A stretch of DNA of 64,000 nucleotides from a bacterium (GTDB taxonomy: Bacteria; Krumholzibacteriota; Krumholzibacteriia; G020349025), in assembly GCA_031362565.1 (NCBI GenBank), contig JANLSU010000048.1, positions 3,664-67,663 on the forward strand, written 5' to 3'. This document shows positions 1-61,933 of the stretch, piece after piece (positions within the stretch are counted from its first letter, which is position 1; every line of letters starts with the position of its first letter). The translations under genes were made by a program, and so were the position numbers. The notes below the pieces were generated by a model. The model was not told the origin of the DNA. It ran no database searches and saw nothing but the letters and a program-made list of their open reading frames with translations.

Positions 1-1953
<1,953 letters not shown>

Positions 1954-1957
<4 letters not shown>

Positions 1958-3636: not shown

Positions 3637-3637
3637 G

Positions 3638-17707: not shown

Positions 17708-19183
17708 ATGATGCACGCCGCGTCGCCGCACCGGCTCCGCACCAGCCGCCTGACGGCTCGACTGGCGTTCGTGGGTGCCGGCGCCTTGCTCCTCAGTTGC
17801 GCCGATTTCGGCGACCCCTTCGTGCCGTCGGTCGCGACCGTGGCGGTGCGCACGACCAACCAAGTAGAGGCCGTGATTGGCGACGACGTCGTGCTTGCGG
17901 CCGACGTTCGCGACGCGGCCGGCCGGCCCATTGACGGTGCACAAGTGACGTGGCTGGCATCCGATCTCGGTGTGGTGCAAGTGCAACCGCAAGGTGCCAC
18001 CGGGGCGCTCGTCAGCGCCCGCGCCGCGGGAACGGCCACTGTCGTCGCGACCTGTCGCGGGGTGGAGAGCACGCCAATCGAAATCACCGTGCGCGTAGCC
18101 CTGATCCAGTCGATCACCATCACGTCGCCACCCAACGCGGTGACGATTCCCATCACTCGATCGGTGCAGTTTACAGCGCGTGTCGTCGATGAACGCGGCA
18201 ACGTCGTGACGGGCGCCAGGGTTGTTTGGAGTGCGTCGGCTCCGGCCGTAGCCATCGACTCGACGGGATTTGCGACCGGCAGCGTCGAGGGCGCGGCCGA
18301 CGTTACTGCGACACTCGGCACCGTGCACAGTGCGCCGGTGCATGTAGTGGTCCGCTTGCTCGCGACGTCGTCGGTGACGATCACGTCACCGGCCAGTCCG
18401 GCGACGATTCCGGTAACGCAGTCGGTGCAATTCGCGGCCACCGTTGTCGACGAGTTTGGCAACTTCGTCGACAACGCCACGATCGTGTGGAACTCGTCGA
18501 ACGCCGCCGTGGCCATCGACACCCATGGACTCGCGACCGGCAGCGCCGAGGGCACCGCCGATGTCACCGCGACGAGTGGGAACGTGCAAAGCGTCCCGGT
18601 TCAGGTGGTGGTCCGGCCACTCGCGACCGGGTCGGTCGAAATCACGAGCCCAGCGAGCCCCGTCAGCCTTTTGACCAACCAGACCGTGCAGTTCGCCGCC
18701 ACGGTCCGTAATGAACTCGGCGCCGTCATGGTCAACGCGCCGGTGGCGTGGAATGCTTCGAGTGCCGCGGTGTCGATCGGCCCGAACGGCCTGTTGCGCG
18801 CCATTGCCGGTGGCCCCGCAACCGTGACCGCGACGAACGGCGGCGTGCAGTCGGCGCCGGTGACGGTGAACGTCACGGCCATCAGCTTCGCGACCGCGGT
18901 GCAGCCGATCTTCGACTCGTTCTGCGTGCGCTGCCACGGCTTCAACGGTAACCTGACCCTCTCGGACAACGCGTACGATCGCATCGTAAATGAGATCTCC
19001 GGGCAAAACCCGTCGCTCTTCCTCGTCAAACCCGGCGACCCGGACAACAGCTACATCTACTTGAAAATGTCCGGCTGCAGCGCCCGCGGCTGTGCCGGCG
19101 ACCGCATGCCGCCCGGCAGCACAGTTGGACCGGCGGCGCTGCAAACCATGCGCGACTGGATTCTGGGCGGCGCGGCGCGCTGA
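17708..19183 (+). CDS. Lipoprotein with four tandem Big_2 (bacterial Ig-like) domains and a C-terminal PSCyt1-like cytochrome c domain
   Basis: Lipobox ALLLSCAD. Four ~80-aa repeats (ITVRVALIQSITITSPPNAVTIPITRSVQFTARVVDERGNVV... x4) are also visible as DNA tandem repeats from ~18040 to 18700. The C-terminus AVQPIFDSFCVRCHG...MRDWILGGA resembles the Planctomycete cytochrome C (PSCyt1) domain. The start could be TTG 17693 or ATG 17708. Confidence 0.7.
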   Translation: MMHAASPHRLRTSRLTARLAFVGAGALLLSCADFGDPFVPSVATVAVRTTNQVEAVIGDDVVLAADVRDAAGRPIDGAQVTWLASDLGVVQVQPQGATGALVSARAAGTATVVATCRGVESTPIEITVRVALIQSITITSPPNAVTIPITRSVQFTARVVDERGNVVTGARVVWSASAPAVAIDSTGFATGSVEGAADVTATLGTVHSAPVHVVVRLLATSSVTITSPASPATIPVTQSVQFAATVVDEFGNFVDNATIVWNSSNAAVAIDTHGLATGSAEGTADVTATSGNVQSVPVQVVVRPLATGSVEITSPASPVSLLTNQTVQFAATVRNELGAVMVNAPVAWNASSAAVSIGPNGLLRAIAGGPATVTATNGGVQSAPVTVNVTAISFATAVQPIFDSFCVRCHGFNGNLTLSDNAYDRIVNEISGQNPSLFLVKPGDPDNSYIYLKMSGCSARGCAGDRMPPGSTVGPAALQTMRDWILGGAAR

Positions 19184-19331
19184 ACCGCGCCGCCGCGCCG
19201 GCTCCTCGCGCCTTACATCCGGCGCGACAAGGCCGCCGGCCACGGCTATACTGGGTCGCTTCTTGAATCCGCGCCGAGGGCCAAGGCCCCCCAGGACCGC
19301 CCTCCTCTCACCTGCACGCCCGGAGGCTCCC

Positions 19332-37394: not shown

Positions 37395-37949
37395 TTGAAA
37401 CAACGGCGGCTGGTTTCGATCGCGACGCTGGCGGTGACGCTGGCGGCCGCGGTGGGCGGTCTGGCGGTAGTGGGGGCCGGTTCCGAACGCACCGCCCCGG
37501 TCGCCGCCGAGGTGCGCCCGGCACCGCAATCCTGCAAACCCGTGGCGCCGGTGCATGTGACGCTCGAGCCAGGCGCCGCGCCCGGCGTGTGGCATGTGCA
37601 CCTGAATGCGGTCGCGAGTGCGAACGACGTCACCGTCGTCGTGGGGTCGAACCGTGGCGACGTCGCGGCCGGCAGCCTCGTGGTCTGGCACGGCAGCCTC
37701 GAGCCCGGTGCCGGTCAGGCGATCGAAGCCCGGTTCCCGGTTGCCGACGATGTGACCAGCGTTTGGGCCGAAGCTCGGATCGCATCCGCGCCCGGCGTGA
37801 CGCAGCGCGACCTGGCGGTACTCGAGGTGCTGAACGGCAAGGCAGCGGCCCGAACTGCGAGTTCCGCCGCCACCGGGCGGGTCGTCACCGACCCGCAGAC
37901 CGGCGAGTCCGTGGTCGAGTTTCAGGGTGAAACGGCGGGCAAGCGATGA
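37395..37949 (+). CDS. Signal-anchored hypothetical protein (184 aa) co-transcribed with the metalloprotease
   Basis: TTG start with GAGGT upstream. Hydrophobic N-terminus LVSIATLAVTLAAAVGGLAVVGAG. Its stop overlaps the next start (ATGA). Confidence 0.45.
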   Translation: MKQRRLVSIATLAVTLAAAVGGLAVVGAGSERTAPVAAEVRPAPQSCKPVAPVHVTLEPGAAPGVWHVHLNAVASANDVTVVVGSNRGDVAAGSLVVWHGSLEPGAGQAIEARFPVADDVTSVWAEARIASAPGVTQRDLAVLEVLNGKAAARTASSAATGRVVTDPQTGESVVEFQGETAGKR

Positions 37950-40102
37950 GCCGCCGCGCCCGCCTCGGCGCCGCCTTTGCCGCGGTTCTCGCTATCGCCG
38001 CGACGGCACAGGCCAACTACACGGTGAGCGGCAAGTTTCAGTACCGTGACCGCCCGTTCGGCGCATCCGGTTTCACCGGTACGACGGTCGATCTCCCGAT
38101 CCGGTTCGCCGACGTCGAAGTCTATGACACCAGCACCAGCGCGGTTCTGGGGTCGGGGGCCACGGATGCAACCGGCAGTTTCTCTTTTGCGGTGACCGAC
38201 GCCGCGACTCGCAACATCGCCGTGCGGGCCAAGACGACGTCGGTGAAGACGCCCACTCTCAAGATCCGGGTGATCACTCCGTCGCCGGGTAACCTCGTAT
38301 TTGCGGTCGCGACGACGGCGTTCAACAACCACACCTCGACCACGAACATCGACTTCACCGCGACACCGGTGGTGGCGGTCCCCTCGGTCTTCACCGCCCC
38401 CGCTGTAGCAGGTGCCGGGGACGCATTCAATATTTTCGACAACGCGCTCGACGCGATGGACTTCATCGCCACGCTGAACGGCTCACGCCCGACACAGCTC
38501 TTGACGCTGCACTGGGATCTGAATTCGGGCGATGGAACGTACTACTCGGATGCCGACCGGACCATTCACTTGCTGGGCCTCAGCAGCGATTCTGACGGTT
38601 ACGACGATACGGTGATTCTGCACGAAATCGGCCACTACACCGAGTTCACGCTGGCGGCGAGCGACAACCCCGGCGGCGGTCACAGTCTGAACGGGGTGTA
38701 CGCGCTGACCCTGACCTGGTCCGAGGGCTGGGCGACGTTCTTCGCGAACATGGTGCGCAAGTGGCGGGGTTTCTCGCGGCCCGAGATCTACGTCGACATG
38801 TTCCCAGCGGCCGGATCCGGCCATCTGTTGATTTCCTACGAATTGGAAACCCCGAATGCCGGCGTGCTTGGCGCCGACAACGAGGTTTCGGTGAATGCAG
38901 CGCTGTGGGATCTGGTCGATGACACGACGACACTGGACGCGACACCCGGCGTCGATGACGACCCGCTGCGGCTGCCGAACGGTCCCCTGGAGTTCTGGCA
39001 AACGTTCACGACCTATTTCCCAACTGCGACGACGATCAGCATGGAAGATTTTTGGGACGGCTGGTTCGCGGGCGGACATGACCACCTGGCGGACATGCGC
39101 ACCACCTTCGGAGCGCACGGGATCGAGTATTTTGACGACAGCTTCGAACCGGATGACGGCGTCGCGCAAGCGCGGACCGTGGTGGCCGGCTCGGCTGCCG
39201 CGCATCACACGATCTACTCGGCCGGCGATGCGGATTGGTGCATCATCGGCGTGCAGGGCGGCGCGCAGTATGAGTTCATGACCCAGTCCCCGGCCCGAAC
39301 CTTTCCGCCCCCAGCAACCCCGCCGCTGCTGAGCGGTGGGGTGACCCACCTCGAGCTCTATGTCAACAATGGCGCGACCCTGGTCGCGACCAGCGCCGAC
39401 GACAATCCGGTCTCGACGCTCAGCTACACGCCGGCACAGACGAGCATCGTCTGGCTGCGTTGCCGGCGCCCGGACAATGTCAATACGTACGGATCGTACG
39501 ACCTCGTGGTGACCGGACCGCCGGTTGCCGTCCGGGTGAGCGATGTCAACGTCAATGCCTTCGGCCGGGCCCTGCGCCTCACTTGGCAGGCAGCGCGCGA
39601 TGGCGCGTTCTCGCACTTCGAGATCGAGCGCGCCGGGTCCGACACCGGGCCCTGGGACGTCCTCGGAACCGTTGCCGAACCGGGCAACGCCAATACGCCC
39701 TACGAATTTGTCGATGCGACGGTGGAGGCCGGAAGGACGTATCAATTCCGTATCATAGGCGTCGAAGCCGACGGCACGCGCGAAGCATTCGGACCGTTCG
39801 CGGCCACGGCGCCGGCACCGGCACGAGTCGCGCTCGCGGCGCCGCAGCCGAATCCGTTCAATCCAACGACCGTATTGCGCTTCGAATTGCCACGCGCGGG
39901 GCGGGTCTGGCTGCGGATTTTCGCGGCTTCCGGAGCGCACATCCGCAGCCTCGTCGCCGGCGAATCCCTGGGCGCGGGTTCCTACGCGCGCACCTGGGAC
40001 GGGCGCGACGACAGCGGCCATGCAGCGGCTTCCGGGGTGTACTGGGCGCGCGTCGATGCCGGCGCGGAACACGCCACCCAGCGCGCGGTGCTGGTGCGCT
40101 GA
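37946..40102 (+). CDS. Secreted zinc metalloprotease (HExxH) with Ig-like N-terminal domain, PPC-like domain and por_Secre_tail/FlgD-Ig C-terminal domain
   Basis: Signal MSRRARLGAAFAAVLAIAATAQA. Active-site motif VILHEIGHYTEF. The C-terminus PQPNPFNPTTVLRFELPRAGRVWLRIFAASGAHIRSLV...TWDGRDDSGHAAASGVYWARV matches the CTD pattern of two other proteins in the window. Confidence 0.7.
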   Translation: MSRRARLGAAFAAVLAIAATAQANYTVSGKFQYRDRPFGASGFTGTTVDLPIRFADVEVYDTSTSAVLGSGATDATGSFSFAVTDAATRNIAVRAKTTSVKTPTLKIRVITPSPGNLVFAVATTAFNNHTSTTNIDFTATPVVAVPSVFTAPAVAGAGDAFNIFDNALDAMDFIATLNGSRPTQLLTLHWDLNSGDGTYYSDADRTIHLLGLSSDSDGYDDTVILHEIGHYTEFTLAASDNPGGGHSLNGVYALTLTWSEGWATFFANMVRKWRGFSRPEIYVDMFPAAGSGHLLISYELETPNAGVLGADNEVSVNAALWDLVDDTTTLDATPGVDDDPLRLPNGPLEFWQTFTTYFPTATTISMEDFWDGWFAGGHDHLADMRTTFGAHGIEYFDDSFEPDDGVAQARTVVAGSAAAHHTIYSAGDADWCIIGVQGGAQYEFMTQSPARTFPPPATPPLLSGGVTHLELYVNNGATLVATSADDNPVSTLSYTPAQTSIVWLRCRRPDNVNTYGSYDLVVTGPPVAVRVSDVNVNAFGRALRLTWQAARDGAFSHFEIERAGSDTGPWDVLGTVAEPGNANTPYEFVDATVEAGRTYQFRIIGVEADGTREAFGPFAATAPAPARVALAAPQPNPFNPTTVLRFELPRAGRVWLRIFAASGAHIRSLVAGESLGAGSYARTWDGRDDSGHAAASGVYWARVDAGAEHATQRAVLVR

Positions 40103-41226: not shown

Positions 41227-42486
41227 TCAGCCCAGCCAGTCGATTGCCTTTTGGACCGCTTTGGCGAGCGCTTCGACCTCGCCGGCAGTGTTGTACAGCC
41301 CGAACGACGCCCGCGCCGTGGCCGGGATTCCGAACCGGTCCATGACCGGCTGGGCGCAATGATGGCCGGTGCGGATCGCAATGCCTTCGCGGTCGAGAAT
41401 CGTGCCCACGTCGTGCGGATGCACACCGTCGATGACGAACGACAGGACGCTCGCCTTGTGCTCTGCTGTGCCGACCAGCCGCACGCGCGGCATCCGGCCG
41501 AGCGCTTCGGTCGCAAGCTGCAGAAGCCGGGCCTCGTGGGCGGCGATCGCGTCGAGCCCGAGCGATTCGACATAGTCCAGCGCTGCCCCAAGTCCGATGC
41601 CGGCAGCGATGTCGGGCGTCCCCGCCTCGAACTTCCACGGCAAGCGATTCCACTCCGAGCGCTCGAACGTCACGGAGCGAATCATGTCACCGCCGCCTTG
41701 CCACGGTGGCATCGCTTCCAAGAGCGCTTGCTTGCCATGCAAGACGCCACTGCCCGTCGGCCCATAGACCTTGTGGCCGGAAAACGCCAGGAAGTCGGCG
41801 TCCAGCGCCTGCACGTCGACAGCCATGTGCGGCGCGGCCTGGGCTGCATCGACGAGCACCGGAACGCCGCGGGCGTGCGCCGCGCGCACCATTTCGACGA
41901 TCGGATTGACGGTGCCAAGCGCATTCGACACCCAAGCGAGGGCCGCAAAGCGGGTCCGGGGGCCGATCAGCGCTTCGTACGCCGCCAACGGCACCGCGCC
42001 TGCATCATCGATCGGCACGTGGACGAGCGTCGCACCCGTACGCGCGCACAGCAATTGCCAGGGCACGATATTCGAGTGGTGCTCGAGGCCGGTGATGAGG
42101 ATTTCGTCGCCCGGCTGCAGGCGCGCGGCGACGAAACTATTGGCCACCAGGTTGATGGCTTCGGTGGTGCCACGGACGAAAATGATTTCGCGCTCGCTTG
42201 CCGCGTTCACGAAGCGGCGAACGCGCTCGCGCGCCGCTTCGTAGGCGTCGGTAGCCCGGACCGAAAGCAAGTGCACGCCGCGGTGGATGTTCGAGTTGTC
42301 CACCGCGTAGAAGCGGCTGATCGCGTCGATCACCTGGCGCGGCTTGTGGGTGGTCGCCGCGTTGTCGAGATAGACCAGCGGCCGGCCATGGACGTCCTGA
42401 TCGAGCGCCGGGAAATCGCGCCGCACGGCTTCGACATCGTAGGCGCGCTTGGTACCGGCGGCGGTGACCGGAGTGGCGGGCGTCAT
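41227..42486 (-). CDS. sufS: Cysteine desulfurase SufS
   Basis: Start at internal MTPATPVTAAG, overlapping the sufD stop (ATGA). PLP-Lys context FSGHKVYGPTGSGVL. Active-site RTGHHCAQP. Confidence 0.85.
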   Translation of the reverse strand: MTPATPVTAAGTKRAYDVEAVRRDFPALDQDVHGRPLVYLDNAATTHKPRQVIDAISRFYAVDNSNIHRGVHLLSVRATDAYEAARERVRRFVNAASEREIIFVRGTTEAINLVANSFVAARLQPGDEILITGLEHHSNIVPWQLLCARTGATLVHVPIDDAGAVPLAAYEALIGPRTRFAALAWVSNALGTVNPIVEMVRAAHARGVPVLVDAAQAAPHMAVDVQALDADFLAFSGHKVYGPTGSGVLHGKQALLEAMPPWQGGGDMIRSVTFERSEWNRLPWKFEAGTPDIAAGIGLGAALDYVESLGLDAIAAHEARLLQLATEALGRMPRVRLVGTAEHKASVLSFVIDGVHPHDVGTILDREGIAIRTGHHCAQPVMDRFGIPATARASFGLYNTAGEVEALAKAVQKAIDWLG

Positions 42487-43825
42487 GCGGCTCCCTCCCC
42501 GGCGGCGATGCCGGCGGCGAGCGCCAGCAGGCGTTCGGCCGCCATGCCGTCGTAGGCGGCGCGCAACGCTGCGTCGCGGGTGCGTTCGAGCACCTCGCGC
42601 GCGAAGGCCTGCACCAGCATCTCGTACGCCGCAGGCGCATCGAGCCCGCGTGACCGCAGGTAGAACAGCGCCTGGCTGTCCAACCGGCCGATCGTCGCAC
42701 CGTGGGTGCAGCGCACGTCGTCGGCGTGAATTTCGAGTTCCGGCTTGGTGTCGACGAGTGCGGCCTTGGACAACAACAGGTTGTTGTTGCGCTGCTGAGC
42801 GTTGGTTTGCTGGGCATTCGGACGCACGAGCACCCGGCCGTTGAATACGCCATGCGCCGTGCCGCCAAGCACGCCCTTGTAGAGCTGCCGGCTCGTGCAG
42901 TGCGGCTCGCGGTGGTCGACGAACGTCTGGTGGTCGGCGTGCTGCGTGCCGGCATGGATCCACAGGCCGTCGAGAGTGCACTCGCCGCCCGTGGCGTCGA
43001 AGCGCACGTCGACGTCGTTGCGCCCGAGGGCGGCGCCCAATCCCAGGACGAACGACTCGAAGTGCGCATCGCGTCCGAGCCGGGCCTGGGTGCGGGCAAT
43101 GTGGAAGGCGGCTTCGGAGGCGCGCTGAATCCGGTGGTGCGTGACGGTCGCAGCGTCGCCGACGATGATCTCGGTCGAGGCGTTGGTGAACGACGCACCT
43201 TGCCCGGCGTGGATTTCGACGACCGTCGCCTGAGAGTCGGGTCCGGCGACCACGAGGACGCGCGGGTGCGACTCGACTGGGCCGTCGGACTCGGGCCCCG
43301 CCACGAACACGAGTTGAATCGGGGCTTCGAGGCGGACGCCGCGTGGGATGACGATGAGTGCTCCGTCGACTGCCAATGCAGTGTTGAGGGCCGTGAACGC
43401 GTGCGCGGCGGTCTCGGGCTCAGGGTCGACGTACGATTCGAGCCGTGCCGTATCACGCCCCGCCCAGGCGGCGGCGAGCGATTCGATGCGGACGCCCGGC
43501 GCAAGCGCACCGGACTTCGAGAGCGCCGGCGCGTAGTGGCCGTTCACGAAAACGAGCACCGGTCCGGCGATTCCGGCGAGCGTCGCGGCGGCGGCGAGCG
43601 GCGCCATGCGGCTCGATTCGCCTGCCTCGGGTGCCGCAAACGTCGCGCGGGCGATCGGCGTCACATCGGTATGCCGCCAGGCCTCCAGGCGCGTGGTTGG
43701 AAAGCCAAGCGCCATAGAGCGTTCGAACGCCGTGCGTCGCGCCGCCTGCAACCAGGCGGGCGCCGCGCCGCGATCGATCTCCGCCCAGCGAGCGGTACGC
43801 GCGTCTTTCATGGTGGCGTGACTCG

Positions 43826-43829
<4 letters not shown>
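42483..43829 (-). CDS. sufD: Fe-S cluster assembly protein SufD
   Basis: 448 aa, SufB/D-family beta-helix region. Position in the sufBCD order. ATGA overlaps on both sides. Confidence 0.8.
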
Positions 43830-44588
<759 letters not shown>

Positions 44589-44596
<8 letters not shown>

Positions 44597-46031
44597 CGCT
44601 TCCCTCCAGGCTCACGCCGAGCAGCTTCTGCGCTTCGACGGCGAACTCCATGGGCAACTCGCGGAACACGTCCTTGCAGAAGCCGTTGACGATCATCGAC
44701 ACGGCGTCCTCGGCCGAAATGCCGCGCTGTTTGCAATAGAAAATCTGATCGTCGCCGATCTTCGCCACGGTCGCCTCGTGCTCCATTTGCGCGTCGCTGT
44801 TCTTGACTTCGATGTACGGGAACGTGTGAGCGCCGCATTTGTCGCCCAGGAGCATGGAGTCGCACTGCGAATAGTTGCGGGCGCCGGTGGCGTTCTTGGC
44901 GATGCGCACCAAGCCACGGTAGGTATTCTGGCCGTGGCCGGCCGAGATGCCCTTGCTGATGATGGTGCTGCGCGTGTTCTTGCCCAAGTGGATCATCTTG
45001 GTGCCGGTATCGGCTTGCTGGTAGTTGTTGGCCAGCGCCACCGAGTAGAACTCGCCCACCGAGCTTTCGCCCTGCAGGATGCAGCTTGGATACTTCCAGG
45101 TGATGGCCGAACCGGTTTCGACTTGGGTCCACGAAATCTTCGACCGCGCGCCGGCGCACTTGCCGCGCTTGGTGACGAAATTGTAGATGCCGCCCTTGCC
45201 GTTCTTGTCGCCGGGATACCAATTCTGCACCGTCGAGTATTTGATGGATGCATCCTCGAGTGCGACGAGTTCGACCACTGCCGCGTGCAGTTGATTCTCG
45301 TCGCGCATTGGCGCAGTGCATCCCTCAAGATAGCTCACGTGTGCGCGTTCGTCGGCGATGATCAGCGTGCGCTCGAACTGCCCGGTCTTGGCGGCATTGA
45401 TGCGGAAGTACGTCGACAGCTCCATCGGGCAGCGGACGCCCTTTGGTACGTAGACGAAGGAGCCGTCGGAAAAGACCGCCGAGTTGAGAGCCGCAAAATA
45501 GTTGTCGGTGTGCGGCACGACCGAGCCCAGGTACTTACGCACGAGTTCCGGGTGCTCTTGCACGGCTTCCGAGAACGAGCAAAAGAGGACGCCCTTTTCG
45601 GCCAGCTTGCTCTTGAAAGTGGTCGCGACCGAGACGCTGTCGAAGACCGCATCCACCGCGACGCCCGCCAAAAGCTCGCGCTCGTGGAGCGGAATGCCGA
45701 GTTTCTCGTAGGTCTTCAGCAGTTCCGGGTCGACGTCTTCGAGCGACTTCGGGCCATCGCTCTGGTTCTTGGGCGCCGAGTAGTAGACGATCGATTGGTA
45801 GTCGATCTTCGGATAGCGGACCATGGCCCAGGTGGGTTCCACCATCGTCAGCCAATGGCGATAGGCCTTGAGCCGCCACTCGAGCATCCACTCGGGCTCG
45901 TTCTTCTTGCCCGAGATGAGCCGGACGACGTCCTCGCTCAAGCCGGGCGGAACGTGATCGGACTCGATGTCGGTCACGAACCCGTACTTGTAGTCGCGGT
46001 TCGCGATATCCTGGATTTCGTCACGTGACAT
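44589..46031 (-). CDS. sufB: Fe-S cluster assembly protein SufB
   Basis: 480 aa; [25 protein letters not shown]... is a characteristic SufB N-terminus, with the conserved C-terminal region. Confidence 0.9.
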
Positions 46032-48627: not shown

Positions 48628-51432
48628 TCAGCCCGGGATGATCGCCCGCCGGACGTGGAGCAAGCGGCCGGTCGACGCGGCGAAGGCGTACACCAGCAAT
48701 GCCACCAGATACACCAGGCCGACGGTCGCTGCCGGGGCATACCAGGCCGAAAAATCGGTGGTGAGCGGGAAGTACGCGACGAGCGTCGCGAGGACGAGAT
48801 TCGTGCCGATGGCGGCGAACAGGCCGAGGCGCAAGAGCACCGTAACCAGAATGCCCATCCCGATGGCGCTCGCGACATACGTCACAACCCCGGCGCTCTC
48901 ACCACCACTTCCCGCCAAGAAACTGAAAATGAGCCAAATGAGGACCGGCGCCACCGCCGGACGCCGTACCAGCATGCGCAGCGACACCACCATGAACAGC
49001 ATCACCATCGGCTCGAAGATGACGCCGGTCTGCAAGTCGCAGAGCATTGCCAGGATGCCGGAGGTGCTCTGCAACGGCGCGATGAGCGTCGTCTCCGGAA
49101 GCGACGGCTCACCCATCCGCGCCGCAATCAGGTCCTTCAGCAAGAAGACCACCAGCATCAGAACGCCCGCCGCCATGCCAAGCAAGAGGTCGCGCCCGAC
49201 GCGCGGGTCGCGCAGACGCCCCGCCAGAACTCGATTCCAGCCGATCAAACTGTCCGGCCAATGGCGCCGCACGTAAGGCTCGAGCCCGACATACAGCAGC
49301 CAGACGAGCGTCGAGATGAAGAGAATGACTCCCAAGCAAGGCACGAACAGCGACCACTCGTCGTTCGGGGATGAGGTGTGGTGTGCCGACAGCACCCAGG
49401 AGATCAGATTCAGCACCAAGAGGATGAGCGCGATGCGCGTCGCGCCGCGGTAGTCGCCATGGCCGCGTTTGACGCTGCGGCGCGCCAGTGCTGCGGCACC
49501 CAGAATCAACAAGAACAGGAGAACACCTACAAAGGTCTGCGCACCGCGCTGTTGCGCCGTCAGTGGCCGTTTCGTCATGCGCTCGGCACGGGTCCACGGC
49601 GCGACAATCTGAAATGAACTGATGCGGCCCCGGTAGGCGCCCGCTTCGACACGCAGCGGCACGCCGGGCAATTCCGGATCCTCGCCGACCCAGGCGGCGC
49701 GCCGGTCGGCGAAGGCCTGCGGCACCCACTGTGGCTCGGCGGTCGAGAACAGCTTCGCGTCGAGACCCGCGGCCGTGAACGCCCGCGTCCAGTCGGGTTC
49801 CGATGCCGCCGTTGCCGATGAATCGATCTGCGCCGGCACGGCTTCGAGGCGGCGCAGGCGCCCGGCCGGATCCAGGACAACGCTCAGCATGCCGGAGTGC
49901 AACAGCGGCGGATCGGAGAGCGACACGGCACCGCCGGTCTCCGTCGTCAACGGCGCCATGCGCTCGGGGCTGCGGCGATACCAGAACGAGATCGCGGCCG
50001 TGCGCGGCACCGCGAGTCCATCCCACCGCTGTGCACCGTGCTGGTGATGACGCACCCAATCGATGTAGTCGACATCCGTGGTGAAACCGCGCGCGTGATC
50101 TCCCGGTGCATCCACGTAACCCAGGTCGGCTACGATCTGAACGGCACGGTCTTCGAGAACCGCCGGCGGCTTGTGCAAAGGCACACGGTTGACGAGATAC
50201 CTTTGGCCCGAGACGGCGAGCAGGAGGCCCATTCCGGCCAATGCACCGGCGAGCACGCCCCAGGCGACACCGCGGCGCAATCCCCCGGCACCACCTGCCG
50301 CCGCAACGATTTCCGGTGACGGCATTTCGCCGGCCGCGAGCGCTGCCGCCAGCGGATCACCGCCCGGCAAGGATGCGGCGACCGCGAGTGCCGACTCCGG
50401 CCGCACCGCCGGGTCTTTGTCGAGACAACGCAGAATGGCGCGCTCGATGACCGGATCGAGGTCTTCGAGAATCGACGACGGATCCGCCGGCATCTTCTCG
50501 CGCTGCAACCGCTCGACTTCCAGAACCGAATCGGCGCGAAACGCCCGCCGGCCGGTGAAGATCTCGTACAACACGAGCCCGAGTGAATACACATCGCTGC
50601 GAATCGAGACGGTGTTGCTCGTCAGTTGCTCGGGGGCCATGTAGGCCGGCGTGCCGGCGCGCTTCTCTTGCGGGCCGGTGTGCTCGACGAGCACCGCCAA
50701 ACCGAAGTCGGTGATGCGTACCTTGCCCTGCGCATCGATCATGATGTTGGCCGGCTTGAGATCGCGGTGCAGCACGCCGCGCTCGTGGGCGGCAGCCAGA
50801 CCAGCGCAGAGTTGCCGCGCCACGTCGAGCGCCTTGTCCTCCGGCAGCCGTCCGATGCGGCGCAAGAGCGACCCCAGGTCGTCGCCCTCCACCAGTTCCA
50901 TCGACAAATACGGCACGCCGTCGATGACACCGACGTCGTAGACCCGGCAGACACTCGGATGCGAGACCTGGCGCGCGATACGCACTTCGCCGTAGAAACG
51001 CGCCTGGCGATCGGGGTTTTCCGCCAAATTGCGCGGCAGGAACTTGAGCGCCACCGCTTGCTCGAGCAAGAGGTCGTCGGCCCGGTACACTTCGCCCATG
51101 CCGCCCCGCCCCAGCAAGCCGATGATCCGGAACCGGCCGCCGACGACGGAACCGGAGGCGAAACCACTGTCCTCGGAACTCTGCGATTGGACCCACGCCG
51201 CACTGGAGGCGATCGACGCATAGCGCGGCGAACCGGGCGACATGGCGTTCGGGGCGTTGGTCAGAATCGTGCGTTCATTGTCGTCGCTCTGCAACGAGCT
51301 GCCGCACGCCGGGCAGAACGGGGTGAGACGGTCGAGTTCCTGCGAACACGTCGGACACTGCCGCACGGCTTTCGACTCCAAGGCGAGGGAACGCCGTCCG
51401 GGGCTTTGGCGGCCCCGGACGGCTTTGCCCAA
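48628..51432 (-). CDS. Ser/Thr protein kinase with N-terminal zinc ribbon, central TM segment, extracytoplasmic domain and C-terminal polytopic membrane domain
   Basis: CPTCSQELDRLTPFCPACG. Kinase motifs GRGGMGEVYRA, HRDLKPANIM, DFGLA, APE. Multiple C-terminal TM helices. Confidence 0.8.
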   Translation of the reverse strand: MGKAVRGRQSPGRRSLALESKAVRQCPTCSQELDRLTPFCPACGSSLQSDDNERTILTNAPNAMSPGSPRYASIASSAAWVQSQSSEDSGFASGSVVGGRFRIIGLLGRGGMGEVYRADDLLLEQAVALKFLPRNLAENPDRQARFYGEVRIARQVSHPSVCRVYDVGVIDGVPYLSMELVEGDDLGSLLRRIGRLPEDKALDVARQLCAGLAAAHERGVLHRDLKPANIMIDAQGKVRITDFGLAVLVEHTGPQEKRAGTPAYMAPEQLTSNTVSIRSDVYSLGLVLYEIFTGRRAFRADSVLEVERLQREKMPADPSSILEDLDPVIERAILRCLDKDPAVRPESALAVAASLPGGDPLAAALAAGEMPSPEIVAAAGGAGGLRRGVAWGVLAGALAGMGLLLAVSGQRYLVNRVPLHKPPAVLEDRAVQIVADLGYVDAPGDHARGFTTDVDYIDWVRHHQHGAQRWDGLAVPRTAAISFWYRRSPERMAPLTTETGGAVSLSDPPLLHSGMLSVVLDPAGRLRRLEAVPAQIDSSATAASEPDWTRAFTAAGLDAKLFSTAEPQWVPQAFADRRAAWVGEDPELPGVPLRVEAGAYRGRISSFQIVAPWTRAERMTKRPLTAQQRGAQTFVGVLLFLLILGAAALARRSVKRGHGDYRGATRIALILLVLNLISWVLSAHHTSSPNDEWSLFVPCLGVILFISTLVWLLYVGLEPYVRRHWPDSLIGWNRVLAGRLRDPRVGRDLLLGMAAGVLMLVVFLLKDLIAARMGEPSLPETTLIAPLQSTSGILAMLCDLQTGVIFEPMVMLFMVVSLRMLVRRPAVAPVLIWLIFSFLAGSGGESAGVVTYVASAIGMGILVTVLLRLGLFAAIGTNLVLATLVAYFPLTTDFSAWYAPAATVGLVYLVALLVYAFAASTGRLLHVRRAIIPG

Positions 51433-51435
51433 GGG

Positions 51436-52931
51436 TCACTTCTCGAACATCGACTCCACCGGCACGACGCGGACGTCGCGAATCGCCAGCGGGAAGACGG
51501 CGATCAGCTTGTCTTGCTCGACCACCGGGGCCGGCTTCTCCGAGTCGTAGGTGATCGGACTCGGCGCATCGGACAGGAGTGCCGCTTTCAGCTTCTCCGA
51601 CTCCCCGGTCACCATGGCGATCTTCAAGTTGTCGTACTGCAGGTGCTTGTGAATCGCCGCGTTGACATCGGCGAGCGTCAGCGCCTGCATCATCTTGCGA
51701 AACTCTTCCAGGTGGCTCTTCTCGAGCCCGTAGAACTGGTCGTCGACGGCATAGCCGAGCCGCGTCGTCGTCGTCTCGGCAAAGTGCAGCACGTACTTGT
51801 AGAGGAAGGAGCGCGTCAGTTCGAACTCCTCCTGGGTCATGCCGTTGTCGACCAAGTCCTTGAGCTCGCCCATCCCAGCGCGCAGCGCGAACTGCGCCTT
51901 GTCGTTCTTGAGTGTCCGGATCCAGACTTGGAAGAGCTGTTGGCGGCGGCCGACATTCGCCGGCGGCATGCGCCGTTGCCCGCCCTCCGGGAACGCCTCG
52001 ATATACGAGTAGTCCCCGTAGTTCAAGCCGCGCGCCTCCCGGATCACCTGGTAGAGATGGCTCGAGGAGTTGCGGTGTTCACCGAGCCACGAGTTGGCGA
52101 TCCACAAGGCGTAGAAATCCTTCTCGCCGCGATGCACGTCGAGCGGGAAACCGAACGCGATCGTGCAATCGGCATTCGGTTTGGCGACCATGACCACCTG
52201 GTGGCCCTGGATGCTCTTGGGCTGCGGCGGCGGAACCGCCGCCACCTTCCCAGCCGGCAGCGATTGCACCGATTTCTCGAAGCGCGACTGCAATTCTTTC
52301 GAATAGCCGCCGCCCAGCGCCACGACCGCGTTGTCGCGCGTGAAGTATTTCGCGTAGAAGGCCTTCACATCGTCGAGCGTGATCGACTCCAGGCCCTGCA
52401 CCGTGCCCGAGGCCGGGAATTGGTACGGAGTTCCTTCGAACACCGCCCAGTCGAGCGCCGCCTTCGCCAGCTCTTCGTCCGAAGCGTAGCGCAACGTGTT
52501 CTTCAGGTAGTTGATCTGATCGCTCTTGAGGCGATCGAAATCATCCGGCGCAAACGCCGGCCGCAAGTAGGCGTCGGCGAACAGCGCCGCGAATTTATCG
52601 GCGTTGTCCAAGTGCGTGCGCCCGCCGAACGTCGTCATTTCCTTGTCGACGCGGATCTCGTACGCCGACGCCAACGGATACAGCTTCTTCAGGATGTCTT
52701 CGTACTTGTTGTCCTTGGTGCTGGCCTGCGACAGCATTTCGCCGGTGAGCGCCGCCAAACCTTCCTTGCCGGGCGGATCGTTCTGCGCGCCGACCTTGAA
52801 CCAGATCCCCATCGTCAGGGTGGGGTCGTCCTTCACCGGCAGCAGCACCGCGGACGACTTGCCGCGCTCCTGCCCCGATGCGGCTGCAGCCACCAGCAGC
52901 ACCATTCCGAACATCAGCATCTCCTTGCGCA

Positions 52932-52932
<1 letters not shown>
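51436..52932 (-). CDS. M16-family peptidase, non-catalytic-type subunit (no HxxEH)
   Basis: 498 aa with signal peptide. M16 fold features but lacking the inverted zinc motif. Adjacent to the catalytic M16 gene. Confidence 0.65.
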
Positions 52933-54275
<1,343 letters not shown>

Positions 54276-56531: not shown

Positions 56532-57380
56532 ATGAAACCGCTTGTTGCCCTGACGCTGGCTTGCAGCTTTCTCCTGCTCGGCGGCGAGGCCCACGCGGGT
56601 GGCGGCTGGGCAAGGCGGCCGCACTCCCTTTACGTGAAACTTGCGGCCACGACCTTGACTTCCGATGCCTTTCACATCAGCAACGGCACCGTCGTCCGAA
56701 CGGCGGACTTCAACACTCAGACCCTGCAGCTGTACGTTGAATACGGAGTCCTCAACCGGCTCTCGGCCGTCCTGGACGCGCCGGTCTTCAAACGCGCCGC
56801 CTACGTCACAGCAAGCTCCGCGAGTGGGATCGGTGACCTGGGGCTAACGCTGAAATACGCCATCCTGACCGGGCGATTCCCGGCGTCGTTGGGGATCGGC
56901 GCCGAATTTCCGACCGGAAACCGGCAGGCCTTTGGGGTCAACAAGAACAATCCCGAAGTGCGGATCGTCTTGCCGACCGGAGACGGTGAATTCAACACCT
57001 GGCTCCGCACTTATGTTTCGCATTCGTTTCACCTCTGGCCGGGGTTCGCGTCGATCGATGTCGGCTACAATCTTCGGACGATGGGCTTCACGAATCAATA
57101 TCAAGCCAACCTGCAGTTGGGTTACAAGGCATCGAACGCCGTCTGGGTGTTTGGCGACCTCCGTCGGTTTGCGACCGCGGGCACACCGCGAGGCGGTGCC
57201 GTATTCTCGTCCATCGGCATCGGCGAAGGCGTCGAATACACATCCTATGGCATGGGGCTCTCCGTCGAAGTGGCGCCACATACGGATCTGACGGGCAACG
57301 TCTCCGGTGGTCTGGGGAGGGCCAAGAACATCTATTCGGGGCTCAATCTCGGATTTGGCATCGCAGTCGATCTGCCATAA
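56532..57380 (+). CDS. Outer-membrane beta-barrel protein (putative small transporter/porin)
   Basis: Signal MKPLVALTLACSFLLLGGEAHA. Alternating amphipathic strands with Gly/Tyr/Asn-rich turns. Confidence 0.55.
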   Translation: MKPLVALTLACSFLLLGGEAHAGGGWARRPHSLYVKLAATTLTSDAFHISNGTVVRTADFNTQTLQLYVEYGVLNRLSAVLDAPVFKRAAYVTASSASGIGDLGLTLKYAILTGRFPASLGIGAEFPTGNRQAFGVNKNNPEVRIVLPTGDGEFNTWLRTYVSHSFHLWPGFASIDVGYNLRTMGFTNQYQANLQLGYKASNAVWVFGDLRRFATAGTPRGGAVFSSIGIGEGVEYTSYGMGLSVEVAPHTDLTGNVSGGLGRAKNIYSGLNLGFGIAVDLP

Positions 57381-57504
57381 TCGGCAGAGCGGCGGGAATT
57401 TCTGAGGACCGCCCGGGGTTCGGGAATGTGGTGACTGGTCGGCGTATTCACGGGCCACTCGGTTCACCGGTTTGCCGGCCCGGTAGGCCAACGCTCGAAG
57501 GGGA

Positions 57505-58389
57505 GTGATTCCGATGCACGGTCGTGTTCTTCGGTATGGTCTCGGCATCGCGCTCGTGGGATTTCTGATCTCCGGCGCCGCGAATGCCGCCCTCCTCGAG
57601 GGGCAGACCGCCCCCAACTTCACCAAGGACCAGCTCGATGCCCCTGCCCCGGCGGCGCGCTCCCTGTCCAACTACGCCGGCAAGGTCGTGGTGCTCTTCC
57701 TCCAGGGTTACAACTGACCCTTCTGCCTCACCGACGGTCCGTCGGTGCAGCAGGACATCTGGACGGCCTACAACAACTCTCACCCGGGACAGGTCCAGGT
57801 GATTGGCGTCGATCTCTACAACGGTACCGCCGCCCAGGAGCGGTCGTTCGGCAATGCCACGGGCGCGACGTATCCTCTACTCCTGCGGGGCGCCGACGGC
57901 GCGGCGGGCGTTGGAAACTTGAACACGCTGTATATGCCGACGTCGGGCGTCACTTACGACAACTACGTTGTGATCAACAAGCACGGCATCGTGCGATACC
58001 ACGCTGCGAACCGCTACGCGCACGGCAACCGGTACCACTTGAACGAGATCCGGGGGACAGTCGACTCGCTCGTGACGAACCCGACGGACGTTGGCGACGG
58101 GCCCGGCCCGCTCGGATGGTCGCTTCGTGTCACCCCGAGCCCGTTCCATGCCACGACCTCGATCGAGTTCGTGAACGATGGACCTGCAACAACGGCTCGC
58201 CTGCGCGTCTTCAACCTTGCGGGACGCGAGATCGCGGCTCGGTCCGCGAGCGCGGTGCCGCGGGGACCCGGCCACCTGTCGTGGGATGGGCGGGATACCG
58301 CCGGGAATCGGGTCGCCTCGGGCGTGTATCTGGTGCGAGTCGAGGTCGGAAGGGTCCGACTCACCAGTCGCGTGGTGTATCTCGAATGA
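57505..58389 (+). CDS. Predicted selenoprotein: exported TlpA/redoxin-like thiol:disulfide oxidoreductase with a U-P-F-C active site (in-frame TGA at 57715..57717) and a por_Secre_tail/FlgD-Ig C-terminal domain
   Basis: ORF-track frames 57505..57717 and 57745..58389 share one reading frame, separated only by a TGA. Read through, the sequence is ...GQTAPNFTKDQLDA...NYAGKVVVLFLQGYN-U-PFCLTDGPSVQQDIW...QVQVIGVDLYNG...YPLLLRGADG...DNYVVINKHGIVRY. This matches the redoxin pattern, with the TGA where the WCxxC N-terminal Cys would be. A hairpin lies 11 nt downstream of the TGA. The C-terminus LRVFNLAGREIA...SWDGRDTAGNRVASGVYLVRV matches the CTD. Confidence 0.6.
57729..57747 (+). promoter_or_regulatory. 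Candidate bacterial SECIS hairpin
   Basis: CACCGAC-ggucc-GUCGGUG (7-bp stem; the apical loop contains GGU). It starts exactly 11 nt 3-prime of the in-frame UGA, which is the canonical spacing for bacterial SECIS elements. Confidence 0.5.
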
Positions 58390-58958
58390 GACTGGCTGTC
58401 GCACGGATTGCAGCGGTTGTCGCGGCGGCCGTCACGATCCTTCTTGGAGTCGCAACCGGCTCCGTCGCGGGGCCGCTCGAAAAAAGACCGGCGCCCCGTT
58501 TCGAGGTCCGGAGCTTGAGTGGTGAACACCTGCGCTTGGTGGATCTCCTGGCGCACGGTCCGGTGCTCCTCGACTTTTGGGCCACCTGGTGTAAACCGTG
58601 CTTGGCGTCGCTCCCGGAACTCGAAAAGCTGCACCAGCGCTATCGCGCGCGCGGGCTCACCGTGCTCGGGATCTCCGTCGATGGACCTCGGAACTTCGTC
58701 AAGGTGAAACCCTTCGTCCAGAAACTTCACCTCACCTTCCCCGTCGCCCTCGACGAGGACGGCTCACTGCAAGCGAAGTACTCCGTTGGCGGCTACCCGA
58801 CGAGCGTGCTCATCGGGGCTGACGGTGCGGTGGATTTCCTCTTGGAGGGCTACCAGCCCGGTAACCTCGACGCGCTGGAAAAGAGGCTCCGGTCCCTGCT
58901 CGATGGGGGCGCAAGGGATTCCGCCGCGCAAGAATCGCCGCCGGATTCAACGCGATGA
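58386..58958 (+). CDS. TlpA-family thiol:disulfide oxidoreductase (canonical WCxxC)
   Basis: Signal anchor MRLAVARIAAVVAAAVTILLGVA. LLDFWATWCKPCLASLPEL. YGVGGYPTSVLI. The start overlaps the selenoprotein stop (ATGA). Confidence 0.75.
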   Translation: MRLAVARIAAVVAAAVTILLGVATGSVAGPLEKRPAPRFEVRSLSGEHLRLVDLLAHGPVLLDFWATWCKPCLASLPELEKLHQRYRARGLTVLGISVDGPRNFVKVKPFVQKLHLTFPVALDEDGSLQAKYSVGGYPTSVLIGADGAVDFLLEGYQPGNLDALEKRLRSLLDGGARDSAAQESPPDSTR

Positions 58959-60511
58959 CCCGCTGCGTTCGATGCCGAGTCGGGCGAGCGTTGCTCGCTT
59001 CCATGCTTGGAATTTTCACTCTTCTCGCCCCCAAGCCCGCACTCGCTCAGCTTTCGCTCTACAACCTGCTCGTGGGCCAGGCCGGCAACGAACCCTTCGC
59101 CACTCCGTCCGACCGGCTGTCGCTCTACGACCGGTTGCACGTCGATCTCGATCTCCCCAACGTACGCGCGGGGCTCCGTTGGGAAACCAATCGGAATAGC
59201 CTCGAACTCGATCCGTACGGCGCCGTGACGTTTCGCTACGTCGAGTTCACGGACAAGAGGGGCACGCTCCGCCTCGGAAATTTCTACACCATCCTGGGGC
59301 GGGGTATCGTGCACCGCTCGTTCGATTTGCCAGCGGTGGTTCTGGACCAGCCAGGCACCCAAGCCCGTTACGCCCCGTCGCGAGATGTCGACGGGGCGCT
59401 GGGCGAAGGCCGGCTAGGGCCTGTTGGAGCGCGCGGATTCGTGGGGCGACCGAGCGGTGGCGATGTCTCGCCGGCTTCGGGGGATGCGCGCTATGGAAAC
59501 CTCGAGGCCGGATCTGAGGTCGCTGCGGATCTGTGGCGGGGGACGCGGCTCGGCGCCACCTATCTCCGGGCTTCCGGGCCGGCCGGTTCGCGCTCGGAAC
59601 GAGGCTCAGGGTTCGTACAGGCGGATCTACTGCAGCTCTTCGGCACGAGTGTCGTGTCTCTGCCGTTGTACTTCGAGTATGCGCAGGTCGACGGCTCGCT
59701 CGGTGATTGGTTCCGATTCGACACCGCCGACGACGCGCCGCACGCGCTCTATGTTTCCAGCAGTTTGCTCGTAGACCCGATTAGTATCGCACTCGAATGG
59801 AAGGACTATCGGGGCTACCGTTTCGGCACCAACGATCCTCCCTCGCTCGTCCGCGAGCACTCCGAGCCACTCCTCAATCGGAACACGCACGTTCTGAACG
59901 CGGAGAGCGAGACGGGATACCAAGTCGAGGCTGTCGTGAACGCAACGCGCCAGCTCTCCTTCACCGGCAACCTGAGTCGGGCGGACGGCGACTTCGCGCG
60001 TCGCAGCTCACGCTTCCAGGAACGTTACTTGGAGGCCCACTGGGGCGCACTGGAGCCCGGGGGCTTGGAAGCCGGCGCTTTCTGGAGCAGCGGCCGGGAC
60101 CAGTTCGTGTTCATCCAGCGCCGCCGGATCACCGGCGCGGGCGTCGTCGTGCCGTTGCCCGCCAAAGTACAACTGACGGCGGAACTGGAGCGCCAGGCGG
60201 CGACTCGGACCCCCGAGGTGTCCTTTGTCGATCACTACGGTTCGCTCCAGTTGGCCCGCGGCAACGCAAGTTTGGCCGTGGTGTACGAGCGCTCCACCGA
60301 TCCAGAGCAGGAGGCCCCGGACGACGCCGCAAGCGCCGAAGTGAACCCGCGCCATTTTGTCGCGATGGTGGGTGGCGTGCGTCTCTCCGACCACCACAAC
60401 ATGACGCTGTTCGTCGGCGAGCGCCGCGGGGGACGCGCCTGCACGGCGGGCACTTGCTACGAGGTCCGTTCGTTCCGCGGCGCGGAACTCCGCCTCGTCT
60501 CCCGATTCTAG
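58955..60511 (+). CDS. Outer-membrane beta-barrel protein, hypothetical
   Basis: 518 aa with signal peptide ...LLAPKPALAQ. Ends LRLVSRF (C-terminal Phe). Its start overlaps the tlpA stop (ATGA). Confidence 0.55.
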   Translation: MTRCVRCRVGRALLASMLGIFTLLAPKPALAQLSLYNLLVGQAGNEPFATPSDRLSLYDRLHVDLDLPNVRAGLRWETNRNSLELDPYGAVTFRYVEFTDKRGTLRLGNFYTILGRGIVHRSFDLPAVVLDQPGTQARYAPSRDVDGALGEGRLGPVGARGFVGRPSGGDVSPASGDARYGNLEAGSEVAADLWRGTRLGATYLRASGPAGSRSERGSGFVQADLLQLFGTSVVSLPLYFEYAQVDGSLGDWFRFDTADDAPHALYVSSSLLVDPISIALEWKDYRGYRFGTNDPPSLVREHSEPLLNRNTHVLNAESETGYQVEAVVNATRQLSFTGNLSRADGDFARRSSRFQERYLEAHWGALEPGGLEAGAFWSSGRDQFVFIQRRRITGAGVVVPLPAKVQLTAELERQAATRTPEVSFVDHYGSLQLARGNASLAVVYERSTDPEQEAPDDAASAEVNPRHFVAMVGGVRLSDHHNMTLFVGERRGGRACTAGTCYEVRSFRGAELRLVSRF

Positions 60512-61159: not shown

Positions 61160-61933
61160 TCACATGCCCATGATGTTGTAGCCGCAATCCACGTGCAGCG
61201 TCTCGCCGGTGATGCCGGCACTGTGATCGGAGAGCAAGAACAGCCCCGTGTGCGCCACATCGTCCATGGTGATGTTGCGCTGCAACGGTGATTTCTCGCG
61301 CGCGTGGGTCAGCATCGAATTGAAATCGCCGACGCCTTTGGCCGACAGCGTCTTGATCGGGCCCGCCGACAGCGCGTTGACGCGAATGTTCTGCGGCCCG
61401 AGATCGTTGGCCAGGTACCGCACGCTCGCCTCCAGGGCGGCCTTGGTGACGCCCATGATGTTGTAGTGCGGAATCACCTTTTCGGCGCCGAAATAGGTCA
61501 GAGTGATCATGGCGCCGCCGCCGCGCGCCGCCATGAGTGGTGCTGCGCCGCGTGCCATCGCCGTGAACGAATAGGCCCCGATGTCGAGCGCTTTGTGAAA
61601 GCCGCTACGCGACACGGTGTAATACGGCCCCACCAAGTCCTCTTTCTCGGCGTACGCCACGGCATGCACGAGCAAATCGATGCCGCCCATTTCCTTGCCG
61701 ATCACCTCGAAAAGGCGGTCGATGGCCGCGTCATCGGCGACGTCACAAGGCAGGACGAGCGGACTGTTCAGGGTCTCGGCCAGGCGCCGGACGCGCTCCT
61801 CGATTGCTCCGCCCTGATAGGTCACCGCCAGCGTCGCGCCCTCGGCGACGAGTTGCTGCGCAATCCCGTATGCCAGGCTGCGGTCGTTCGCGAGCCCCAA
61901 AACGAGCGCCTTTTTGCCCGCCACTGAACCCAT
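61160..61933 (-). CDS. fabI: Enoyl-[ACP] reductase (NADH) FabI
   Basis: GKKALVLGLANDRSLAYGIAQ; the Y...K catalytic dyad context YNIMGVTKAALE; 257 aa. Confidence 0.85.
   Translation of the reverse strand: MGSVAGKKALVLGLANDRSLAYGIAQQLVAEGATLAVTYQGGAIEERVRRLAETLNSPLVLPCDVADDAAIDRLFEVIGKEMGGIDLLVHAVAYAEKEDLVGPYYTVSRSGFHKALDIGAYSFTAMARGAAPLMAARGGGAMITLTYFGAEKVIPHYNIMGVTKAALEASVRYLANDLGPQNIRVNALSAGPIKTLSAKGVGDFNSMLTHAREKSPLQRNITMDDVAHTGLFLLSDHSAGITGETLHVDCGYNIMGM

Follow-up and report, generated by a model that had tools for sequence, protein, structure and literature searches.

The closest described counterparts of the gene considered here are the 'Prx-like thiol:disulfide oxidoreductase' selenoproteins of Kryukov and Gladyshev and of Zhang et al., which carry the Pfam domain PF00578 with a UxxC or UxxU motif and have Geobacter WP_010940744.1 as their prototype (PMC9312934, PMC1794560, PMC13188914). 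We describe a locus of this kind in a 64,000-nucleotide stretch of bacterial DNA (contig JANLSU010000048.1 of assembly GCA_031362565.1; the whole stretch is referred to below as the window, and all coordinates are its own), in which an in-frame TGA at 57715-57717 separates two open reading frames (ORFs). Positions 57514..58389 very probably form a single gene for an exported thiol:disulfide oxidoreductase containing selenocysteine (Sec), and the TGA almost certainly encodes the active-site Sec of a U-P-F-C motif, as judged from the sequence comparisons presented here. The window gene and its homologs share with the Prx-like selenoproteins an AhpC-TSA/redoxin fold, Sec in the first position of UxxC, homologs with cysteine (Cys), a putative bacterial selenocysteine insertion sequence (bSECIS) element directly downstream, and a function that is predicted. 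In contrast to the known members, which come from Deltaproteobacteria or Firmicutes, the family described here belongs to Candidatus Eisenbacteria, has a signal peptide, a C-terminal domain (CTD) like those known from type IX secretion systems (T9SS) and invariant DNY and HGNRYH motifs, and has Sec more often than Cys, in as many as three tandem copies.

Two further systems provide a frame for the comparison. The extracytoplasmic ResA/TlpA reductases (Protein Data Bank, PDB, entries 1SU9, 3C71, 4NMU, 2LS5 and 3KCM) give the best structure and sequence matches and have their CxxC motif in the same position; overall identity to them is ~20-25%, and the Eisenbacteria family has Sec in place of Cys and an extra C-terminal immunoglobulin (Ig)-like domain. 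The second is HBP35 of Porphyromonas gingivalis, a thioredoxin-motif protein secreted by the Por system, or T9SS (PMC2907840, PMC3120885), which we liken to the Eisenbacteria family by architecture. HBP35 joins a thioredoxin-like, CxxC-type domain to a conserved CTD that serves T9SS export and surface attachment, and it sets a precedent for a redoxin at the cell surface; unlike the window protein it has Cys, comes from Bacteroidota and binds hemin.

The gene and its homologs extend a well-known class, the UxxC thioredoxin-fold selenoproteins, and introduce no new principle. Their sequences indicate a genuine, unannotated selenoprotein family with more than 50 genes in Eisenbacteria, and in public metagenome-assembled genomes (MAGs) and metagenomes each appears as two pieces, a stub called 'hypothetical' plus a truncated protein called 'FlgD Ig-like / T9SS sorting domain'. 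Indirectly but strongly, they also argue that Sec is decoded in Candidatus Eisenbacteria, a phylum found largely in soil and groundwater. The selenoproteome reviews and the database paper that we consulted make no reference to this phylum, and no paper in the literature searched has selenocysteine together with Eisenbacteria. A Sec redoxin with both a signal peptide and a T9SS-type tail would imply selenium chemistry at the cell surface, for which HBP35 is the Cys-type precedent; the same literature contains no example of a Sec-type T9SS cargo, and its one paper with both selenoprotein and T9SS is irrelevant here.

The in-frame TGA and the redoxin domain

The window has a G+C content of 66%. 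The first of the two ORFs, 57505..57717 with a GTG start, ends at the TGA, and the frame is then free of stops to a second TGA at 58387-58389, just as an earlier note on this DNA had described it. The true start is likely to be ATG 57514, 8 nt after a Shine-Dalgarno-like GGGGAG (Table 1), and in the public Logan data the gene call of the N-terminal fragment begins at this ATG. Public annotation divides the gene into ORFs of 67 aa and 214 aa. The signal peptide listed in Table 1 was judged by inspection; homologs also begin with a hydrophobic leader, which is a helix in the AlphaFold2 (AF2) model of one of them, P0004.

With Cys put for the stop, the translated gene matches Pfam AhpC-TSA (PF00578) at 35.8 bits, against a cutoff of 26, and Redoxin (PF08534) at 34.2 bits, over residues 32-166. 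The stop is residue 71 in the numbering of this search, which counts from the GTG start, and it lies inside the match. Because the match runs across this residue, the two ORFs are halves of one domain, which disposes of the possibility, named in the earlier note, that they belong to unrelated families, and favors Sec. With PF00578 at this score and the motif U-P-F-C, the predicted family falls under the Prx-like thiol:disulfide oxidoreductase selenoproteins by their definition, PF00578 plus UxxC (PMC9312934, PMC13188914).

The position of the TGA within this domain is that of the nucleophilic Cys. In sequence matches to PDB entries 2LS5 and 3KCM, the WCxxC motifs of these proteins align with U-P-F-C. 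AF2 models were made for P0004, a full-length Cys homolog, and for the C-terminal 96 residues of the window protein. The P0004 model (pLDDT 90.9) consists of a signal helix, a thioredoxin fold and a seven-strand beta-sandwich, and places Cys63 after the strand 53-59 and immediately before helix 64-84, which is alpha-1; its closest PDB structures are ResA, the Bacillus thiol-disulfide oxidoreductase 4NMU, Bacteroides 2LS5 and the Bcp/AhpE peroxiredoxins. The model has the features that define ResA/TlpA proteins, CxxC standing at the N-terminal end of alpha-1 in a thioredoxin fold, and with the signal peptide judged by inspection the protein would be extracytoplasmic. With the NCBIfam model of the ResA subfamily the window protein reaches 19.9 bits, the cutoff being 170. 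The predicted selenoprotein is, in other words, one that would work like a ResA/TlpA protein and is not a ResA ortholog.

A peroxiredoxin-type mechanism (TxxU) was considered and excluded. The peroxidatic motif of peroxiredoxins is PxxxTxxC/U, whereas the family motif, G-Y-x-U-P-x-C, is of the CxxC type, and each of the NCBIfam peroxiredoxin models matches only one of 57 family members (E 2e-5 to 3e-4). Farther along the protein, the family alignments (A1, 29 sequences, and A2, a tighter set) contain invariant D-N-Y and H-G-N-R-Y-H motifs and further His residues (RYHAA), which in the window occupy 57958-58050 (residues ~152-181), roughly 85-110 residues past UxxC. Together with the Sec or Cys, these motifs might form a metal- or substrate-binding site.

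The homologs bear directly on how the TGA is read. A search of a collection of 5.8 billion proteins, of which we examined the best 120 homologs, returned two populations, one of ~280 aa that aligns with the whole query and a larger one of ~205-215 aa that aligns only with its last 72%. Every one of the 48 full-length homologs from the database has CxxC, its first Cys falling exactly at the window TGA, as expected in the earlier note if the codon marks the nucleophilic position of a UxxC redoxin motif, and these proteins read on through the motif rather than ending there, which again favors Sec. The other 72 are short gene calls that begin a few codons past the motif. None of the 120 proteins contains U or X, and no NCBIfam model specific to the family was found. 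The family is of modest size: 166 representatives match at E <= 1e-30 among 1.84 billion, unrelated multi-Ig proteins included.

At the DNA level we collected loci from 29 species-level genomes, nearly all named Candidatus Eisenbacteria or Eiseniibacteriota, and from 35 metagenome contigs (loci are cited below by L numbers). They hold ~70 copies of the gene, ~56 with TGA at the codon and ~14 with TGC or TGT, and the part upstream of the codon (APxFTK...GKVVVLFLLGY) is conserved in frame across the copies. Assemblies with Sec forms include JBOHUC01, DATEMP01, VBOT01, JACOSU01, JANPEF01, JBGPFC01 and CAZSQX01, while JBKJJJ01 and JANMQY01 are examples with Cys forms only. Such exchange of Sec and Cys at a catalytic Cys position is a signature of selenoproteins (PMC9312934). 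Several loci carry more than one copy: three Sec copies in tandem in L004 (at 3056, 4095 and 5075), two Sec copies in L024 (5163 and 6136) and in L013 (1456 and 4379, the second after the DUF6029 gene described below), and one Sec and one Cys copy in the mixed tandems of L025, L027 and L055. In a neighbor-joining tree the Sec forms occupy most deep branches and the Cys forms are scattered over at least eight places, which suggests that Sec is old in the family and that Cys has replaced it repeatedly.

Two Sec-form loci with the full Eisenbacteria-type operon lie in MAGs labeled otherwise, L006 (JABFRZ01, 'Planctomycetota') and L018 (JBKJYH01, 'Limnocylindria'). Since these contigs are short (3.4-3.5 kb), we regard mis-binning as the probable explanation rather than horizontal transfer.

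We considered how the same observations would look if the window gene were a pseudogene or an assembly error, that is, a Cys redoxin inactivated by a change of TGC to TGA, with an incidental hairpin. The TGA is one base from TGC and TGT, public gene callers take it as a stop, and the source is a metagenome assembly. The same TGA, however, recurs in 46 sequences, all distinct and drawn from numerous species and samples, with both flanks conserved at the protein level, and for this reason we give the idea almost no credence; the three tandem Sec copies of L004, the identical window sequence in an independent Logan assembly, and the covariation of the hairpin described below also speak against it.

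A second arrangement, in which the locus holds two genes, one for a 67-aa secreted peptide and the other for a 214-aa CTD protein starting at GTG 57745, with the hairpin as an attenuator or coupling element between them, is very improbable. It matches the public annotation, and a GTG or ATG follows soon after the motif in many homologs. These 'starts', however, vary among homologs and fall within conserved codons; neither the Pfam domain nor the predicted fold is broken at the stop, and the Cys forms consist of one ORF that is equally long. The downstream product would moreover lack the beta1-CxxC-alpha1 core and a signal peptide, yet would bear an export tag at its C-terminus. Only by read-through does one product come to carry the signal peptide together with the sorting domain.

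The hairpin downstream of the TGA

The earlier note had pointed to a SECIS-like hairpin at the spacing typical of bacteria and with G and U in its loop, and both the position and the loop bear this out. The element resembles the SECIS of E. coli fdhF in that the stem-loop lies 11 nt past the UGA, the stem starts at +15 counted from the U of UGA, the apical GGUC (57736-57739 in the window) occupies +22..25, and the UGA is followed by C. It differs from fdhF in that the stem is perfect, 8 bp long and GC-rich, and encodes a conserved D-G-P-S. The likeness is one of sequence and register, and recognition of the window element by SelB is putative; G23 and U24 of the E. coli SECIS are the SelB contacts and correspond to 57737-57738 in the window. 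Because the loop sequence and register are the same as in fdhF, heterologous read-through in E. coli is plausible.

Conservation of the hairpin follows the state of the codon. A hairpin is present after the TGA in every Sec form. Among the 46 that are distinct, 97% of the upper-stem pairs are formed, and 44 of them have at least seven of the eight pairs; the corresponding values for 12 Cys forms are 71% and 3 of 12, most Cys forms having lost the hairpin. Among the Sec forms, changes on both sides occur at four stem pairs. Pair 15-33 is CG in 28 and GC in 13, which represents linked third-position changes of a Leu and a Val codon; pair 17-31 is CG in 42, GU in two and AU in one; pair 18-30 is CG in 41 and GC in four; and pair 21-27 is CG in 44 and UA in one. 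None of 500 shuffles reached the observed covariation, and controls in which the position was slid gave about a third of the score. Codon choice in the loop is similarly constrained, with GGT for the loop Gly in 45/45 Sec forms (GGT makes up 14% of Gly codons in window genes) and CCG for the adjoining Pro in 42/43, whereas the Cys forms use GGT, GGG or GGC and CCG, CCC or CCT at these codons.

The specificity of the association can also be read from a census of both strands of the window and the loci (914 kb). In this DNA, 56 hairpins have a stem of 7 bp or more that closes on GGUC. In 48 of them the GGUC is at +22 from a TGA of this family, one is at a contig edge, six are background, and one belongs to a Cys form (L015, 376-423) that has TGT at the codon and keeps a perfect copy of the hairpin; its sister is a Sec form, L023 (6106-6153). 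We read the L015 hairpin as a 'fossil SECIS' that marks a recent change from Sec to Cys; earlier work has already described such SECIS remnants in Cys forms that arose from Sec forms (PMC1794560).

Not every test singles the element out. Folded alone, the hairpin of the window copy is only modestly unusual (z = -2.2, with 2 of 200 shuffles folding as well). In the window copy a lower stem is also predicted to extend the hairpin (Table 1); its six pairs are each formed in ~47-89% of family sequences, five of them in 47-80%, and we have dropped this stem as a functional part since it is not conserved across the family alignment.

Several results run counter to the assignment of Sec. No Rfam family matches the hairpin at gathering score, and at E <= 10 there is a chance match to msiK on the opposite strand; the bulged U of the fdhF element is absent. 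A tblastn search with the E. coli proteins found no selA, selB or selD in the window and ~390 kb of loci, and ARAGORN found no tRNA-Sec, nor any tRNA at all, in the window or 30 loci. That none was found says little because the window and the ~390 kb are tiny fractions of the genomes. The window and the loci also contain no other convincing TGA-interrupted ORF with a redox motif and a hairpin.

The lack of SelA, SelB and SelD matches also leaves a small chance that read-through of the UGA gives Trp, Cys or Gly, whether through near-cognate decoding, a suppressor or a reassigned code. UGA followed by C is a leaky context, and this too would fit such a reading. Against it, TGA is the stop of 17 of 21 window genes, this gene's own included, which implies the standard genetic code and rules out reassignment. 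The codon stands, moreover, at the catalytic Cys position, where exchange of Sec and Cys is the selenoprotein signature (PMC9312934), and the element downstream agrees with the E. coli SECIS in both loop sequence and register. A Sec-encoding TGA continues to account best for the locus.

The C-terminal domain, with a proposed export route and mechanism

The last part of the protein matches FlgD_ig (PF13860) at 39.1 bits (cutoff 27) over residues 217-280. Among 57 family members, 44 match the T9SS sorting-domain model TIGR04183 at E <= 1e-3, the best at E 3e-8. For the window CTD, the AF2 model (96 residues, pLDDT 93.7) has seven strands, and a Foldseek search of the PDB with this model places PorU (6ZA2) at ranks 1-2 (E 2.6e-4, TM 0.75) and PorZ (5M11) at rank 4, with the CTDs of T9SS cargo proteins lower in the list (mirolase 8QB1 at rank 24; NucA 8GLK_D, bound to the T9SS translocon, at rank 48). 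We suggest on the basis of the family-level TIGR04183 matches and the modeled fold that the domain is a T9SS-type CTD.

A Por_Secre_tail-like or FlgD_ig end of the same kind is found on two other window proteins, encoded at 19092-22076 (+; 994 aa, with beta-propeller repeats) and 37946-40102 (+; 718 aa). The C-terminal tag thus occurs three times in 64 kb, which is the behavior expected of a sorting signal.

It is a serious, if doubtful, alternative that the protein is a selenoprotein whose Ig-like CTD is not a T9SS signal, in which case it would be periplasmic or docked through its CTD on the DUF6029 barrel. The window protein itself scores 22.1 bits with TIGR04183, 0.9 below the cutoff of 23; FlgD and generic Ig folds match the CTD model with scores similar to those of the Por proteins; no T9SS core gene was seen among the ~28 window proteins scanned; and in the papers searched T9SS is a system of Bacteroidota or the FCB group only, with nothing on type IX secretion in Eisenbacteria. 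All of these weigh against a sorting function. The opposing evidence is that most family members do match TIGR04183, that PorU and PorZ, the top-ranking structures, carry such CTDs, as do the cargo proteins farther down, and that the domain sits at the extreme C-terminus and recurs on two other large window proteins in the manner of sorting tags. Of the por_Secre_tail/FlgD-Ig tail proposed in the earlier note, the FlgD-Ig part stands, by score and fold, and the sorting-tail part falls just short for the window protein on its own.

The comparisons show that the TGA corresponds to Cys, that both halves of the gene and the operon are conserved, that the hairpin covaries, and what fold and CTD homology the protein has. 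Taking the domain as a T9SS-type CTD, we infer from these features Sec insertion itself, the route of export, the chemistry, a redox partner and any substrate; the proposed model is as follows. A ribosome reaching the UGA at 57715 would meet the hairpin 11 nt downstream, which would recruit a SelB-type factor with Sec-tRNA(Sec), and Sec would be inserted as residue 68, giving a U-P-F-C active site where helix alpha-1 begins in a TlpA/ResA-like fold. The signal peptide would direct the protein across the inner membrane through the Sec translocon, and the Ig-like CTD would most likely take it to or through the outer membrane, where the Sec/Cys pair could act as a strongly nucleophilic selenol/thiol reductant at the envelope or cell surface. 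Re-reduction would probably be carried out by the co-transcribed periplasmic TlpA-like WCKPC protein, and the selenoprotein would probably associate with the DUF6029 outer-membrane barrel.

A more speculative extension, which we put forward tentatively, is that the family is the first selenoprotein cargo of a type-IX-like pathway and exposes a selenol on the outer membrane, or outside it, in Eisenbacteria of soil and groundwater. Sec would then be ancestral and dominant, with at most three tandem copies, and electrons delivered through the TlpA-like reductase and the DUF6029 barrel would make the operon an extracellular selenium redox module.

The operon and its neighborhood

The features of the locus are collected in Table 1. 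The order in which the genes stand is conserved among the loci: one to three copies of the redoxin-CTD gene, the TlpA/ResA-like WCKPC gene, the DUF6029 gene and, usually, a convergent short-chain dehydrogenase. The ATGA overlap with the next gene reported in the earlier note is present, with ATG at 58386-58388 and TGA at 58387-58389.

Table 1. Coordinates of the predicted selenoprotein gene, its parts and its neighbors in the window
Feature	Position	Strand	Remarks
Shine-Dalgarno-like GGGGAG	57500..57505	+	From sequence; 8 nt upstream of ATG 57514
Complete coding sequence of the predicted selenoprotein	57514..58389	+	291 codons; Sec would be residue 68; own stop TGA 58387-58389
Predicted signal peptide, MHGRVLRYGLGIALVGFLISGAANA followed by A	57514..57588	+	Positive n-region, hydrophobic core, A-N-A cleavage site; judged by inspection
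Thioredoxin-fold AhpC-TSA/Redoxin domain, across the UGA	57601..57999	+	Pfam, PDB sequence matches, AF2 model of homolog
UGA, predicted to be read as Sec68	57715..57717	+	First position of the U-P-F-C motif (57715-57726)
Extended hairpin, lower stem 57721-57726 with 57750-57755	57721..57755	+	Predicted, window copy
Putative bSECIS upper stem-loop, CACCGACG-GUC-CGUCGGUG	57729..57747	+	8-bp stem; begins 11 nt past the UGA
C-terminal Ig-like beta-sandwich, T9SS type-A CTD-like / FlgD_ig	58129..58386	+	Pfam, TIGR04183, AF2 model
TlpA/ResA-like thiol-disulfide oxidoreductase (WCKPC)	58386..58958	+	N-terminal anchor or signal; ATGA overlap, translationally coupled
DUF6029 protein, putative outer-membrane beta-barrel	58955..60511	+	PF19494 36.1 bits; ends ...LRLVSRF; third operon gene
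Short-chain dehydrogenase, convergent neighbor	61160..61933	-	adh_short in L033 gene calls; tblastn synteny in at least 15 loci

The WCKPC gene follows the family gene in nearly all loci that are long enough. Its product matches Pfam AhpC-TSA at 84.6 bits and the NCBIfam ResA subfamily model at 100 bits, below the cutoff of 170. The earlier note took it for a Cys paralog of the selenoprotein, a view that we do not share: BLASTP against the selenoprotein gives E = 3.1, and because of this value it is not a detectable paralog and is instead a conserved operon partner. The true Sec/Cys pairs lie within the family itself, some of them being the mixed tandems L025, L027 and L055.

The public call of the DUF6029 gene starts at ~59003. 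A published study links DUF6029 with Wzi-like barrels of the outer membrane (PMC9603273), and the protein encoded here may likewise be an outer-membrane barrel.

Directly upstream of the selenoprotein gene, the product of 56532-57380 (+) is 282 aa long, has a signal peptide and a composition like that of outer-membrane proteins, and gives no Pfam or NCBIfam match; this ORF is not conserved beside the operon in the other loci. Elsewhere in the window, a respiratory-type cluster at 1954-7676 (-) encodes a multi-heme cytochrome c (560 aa), a cytochrome b and a Rieske protein (from the L070 gene calls), together with a FAD/4Fe-4S oxidoreductase, and an Rrf2 regulator is nearby. The regions 42483-46031 (-) and 48628-54275 (-) code for the Fe-S assembly proteins SufB/SufD, a Ser/Thr protein kinase of 934 aa and an M16 peptidase pair, and represent an ordinary housekeeping context.

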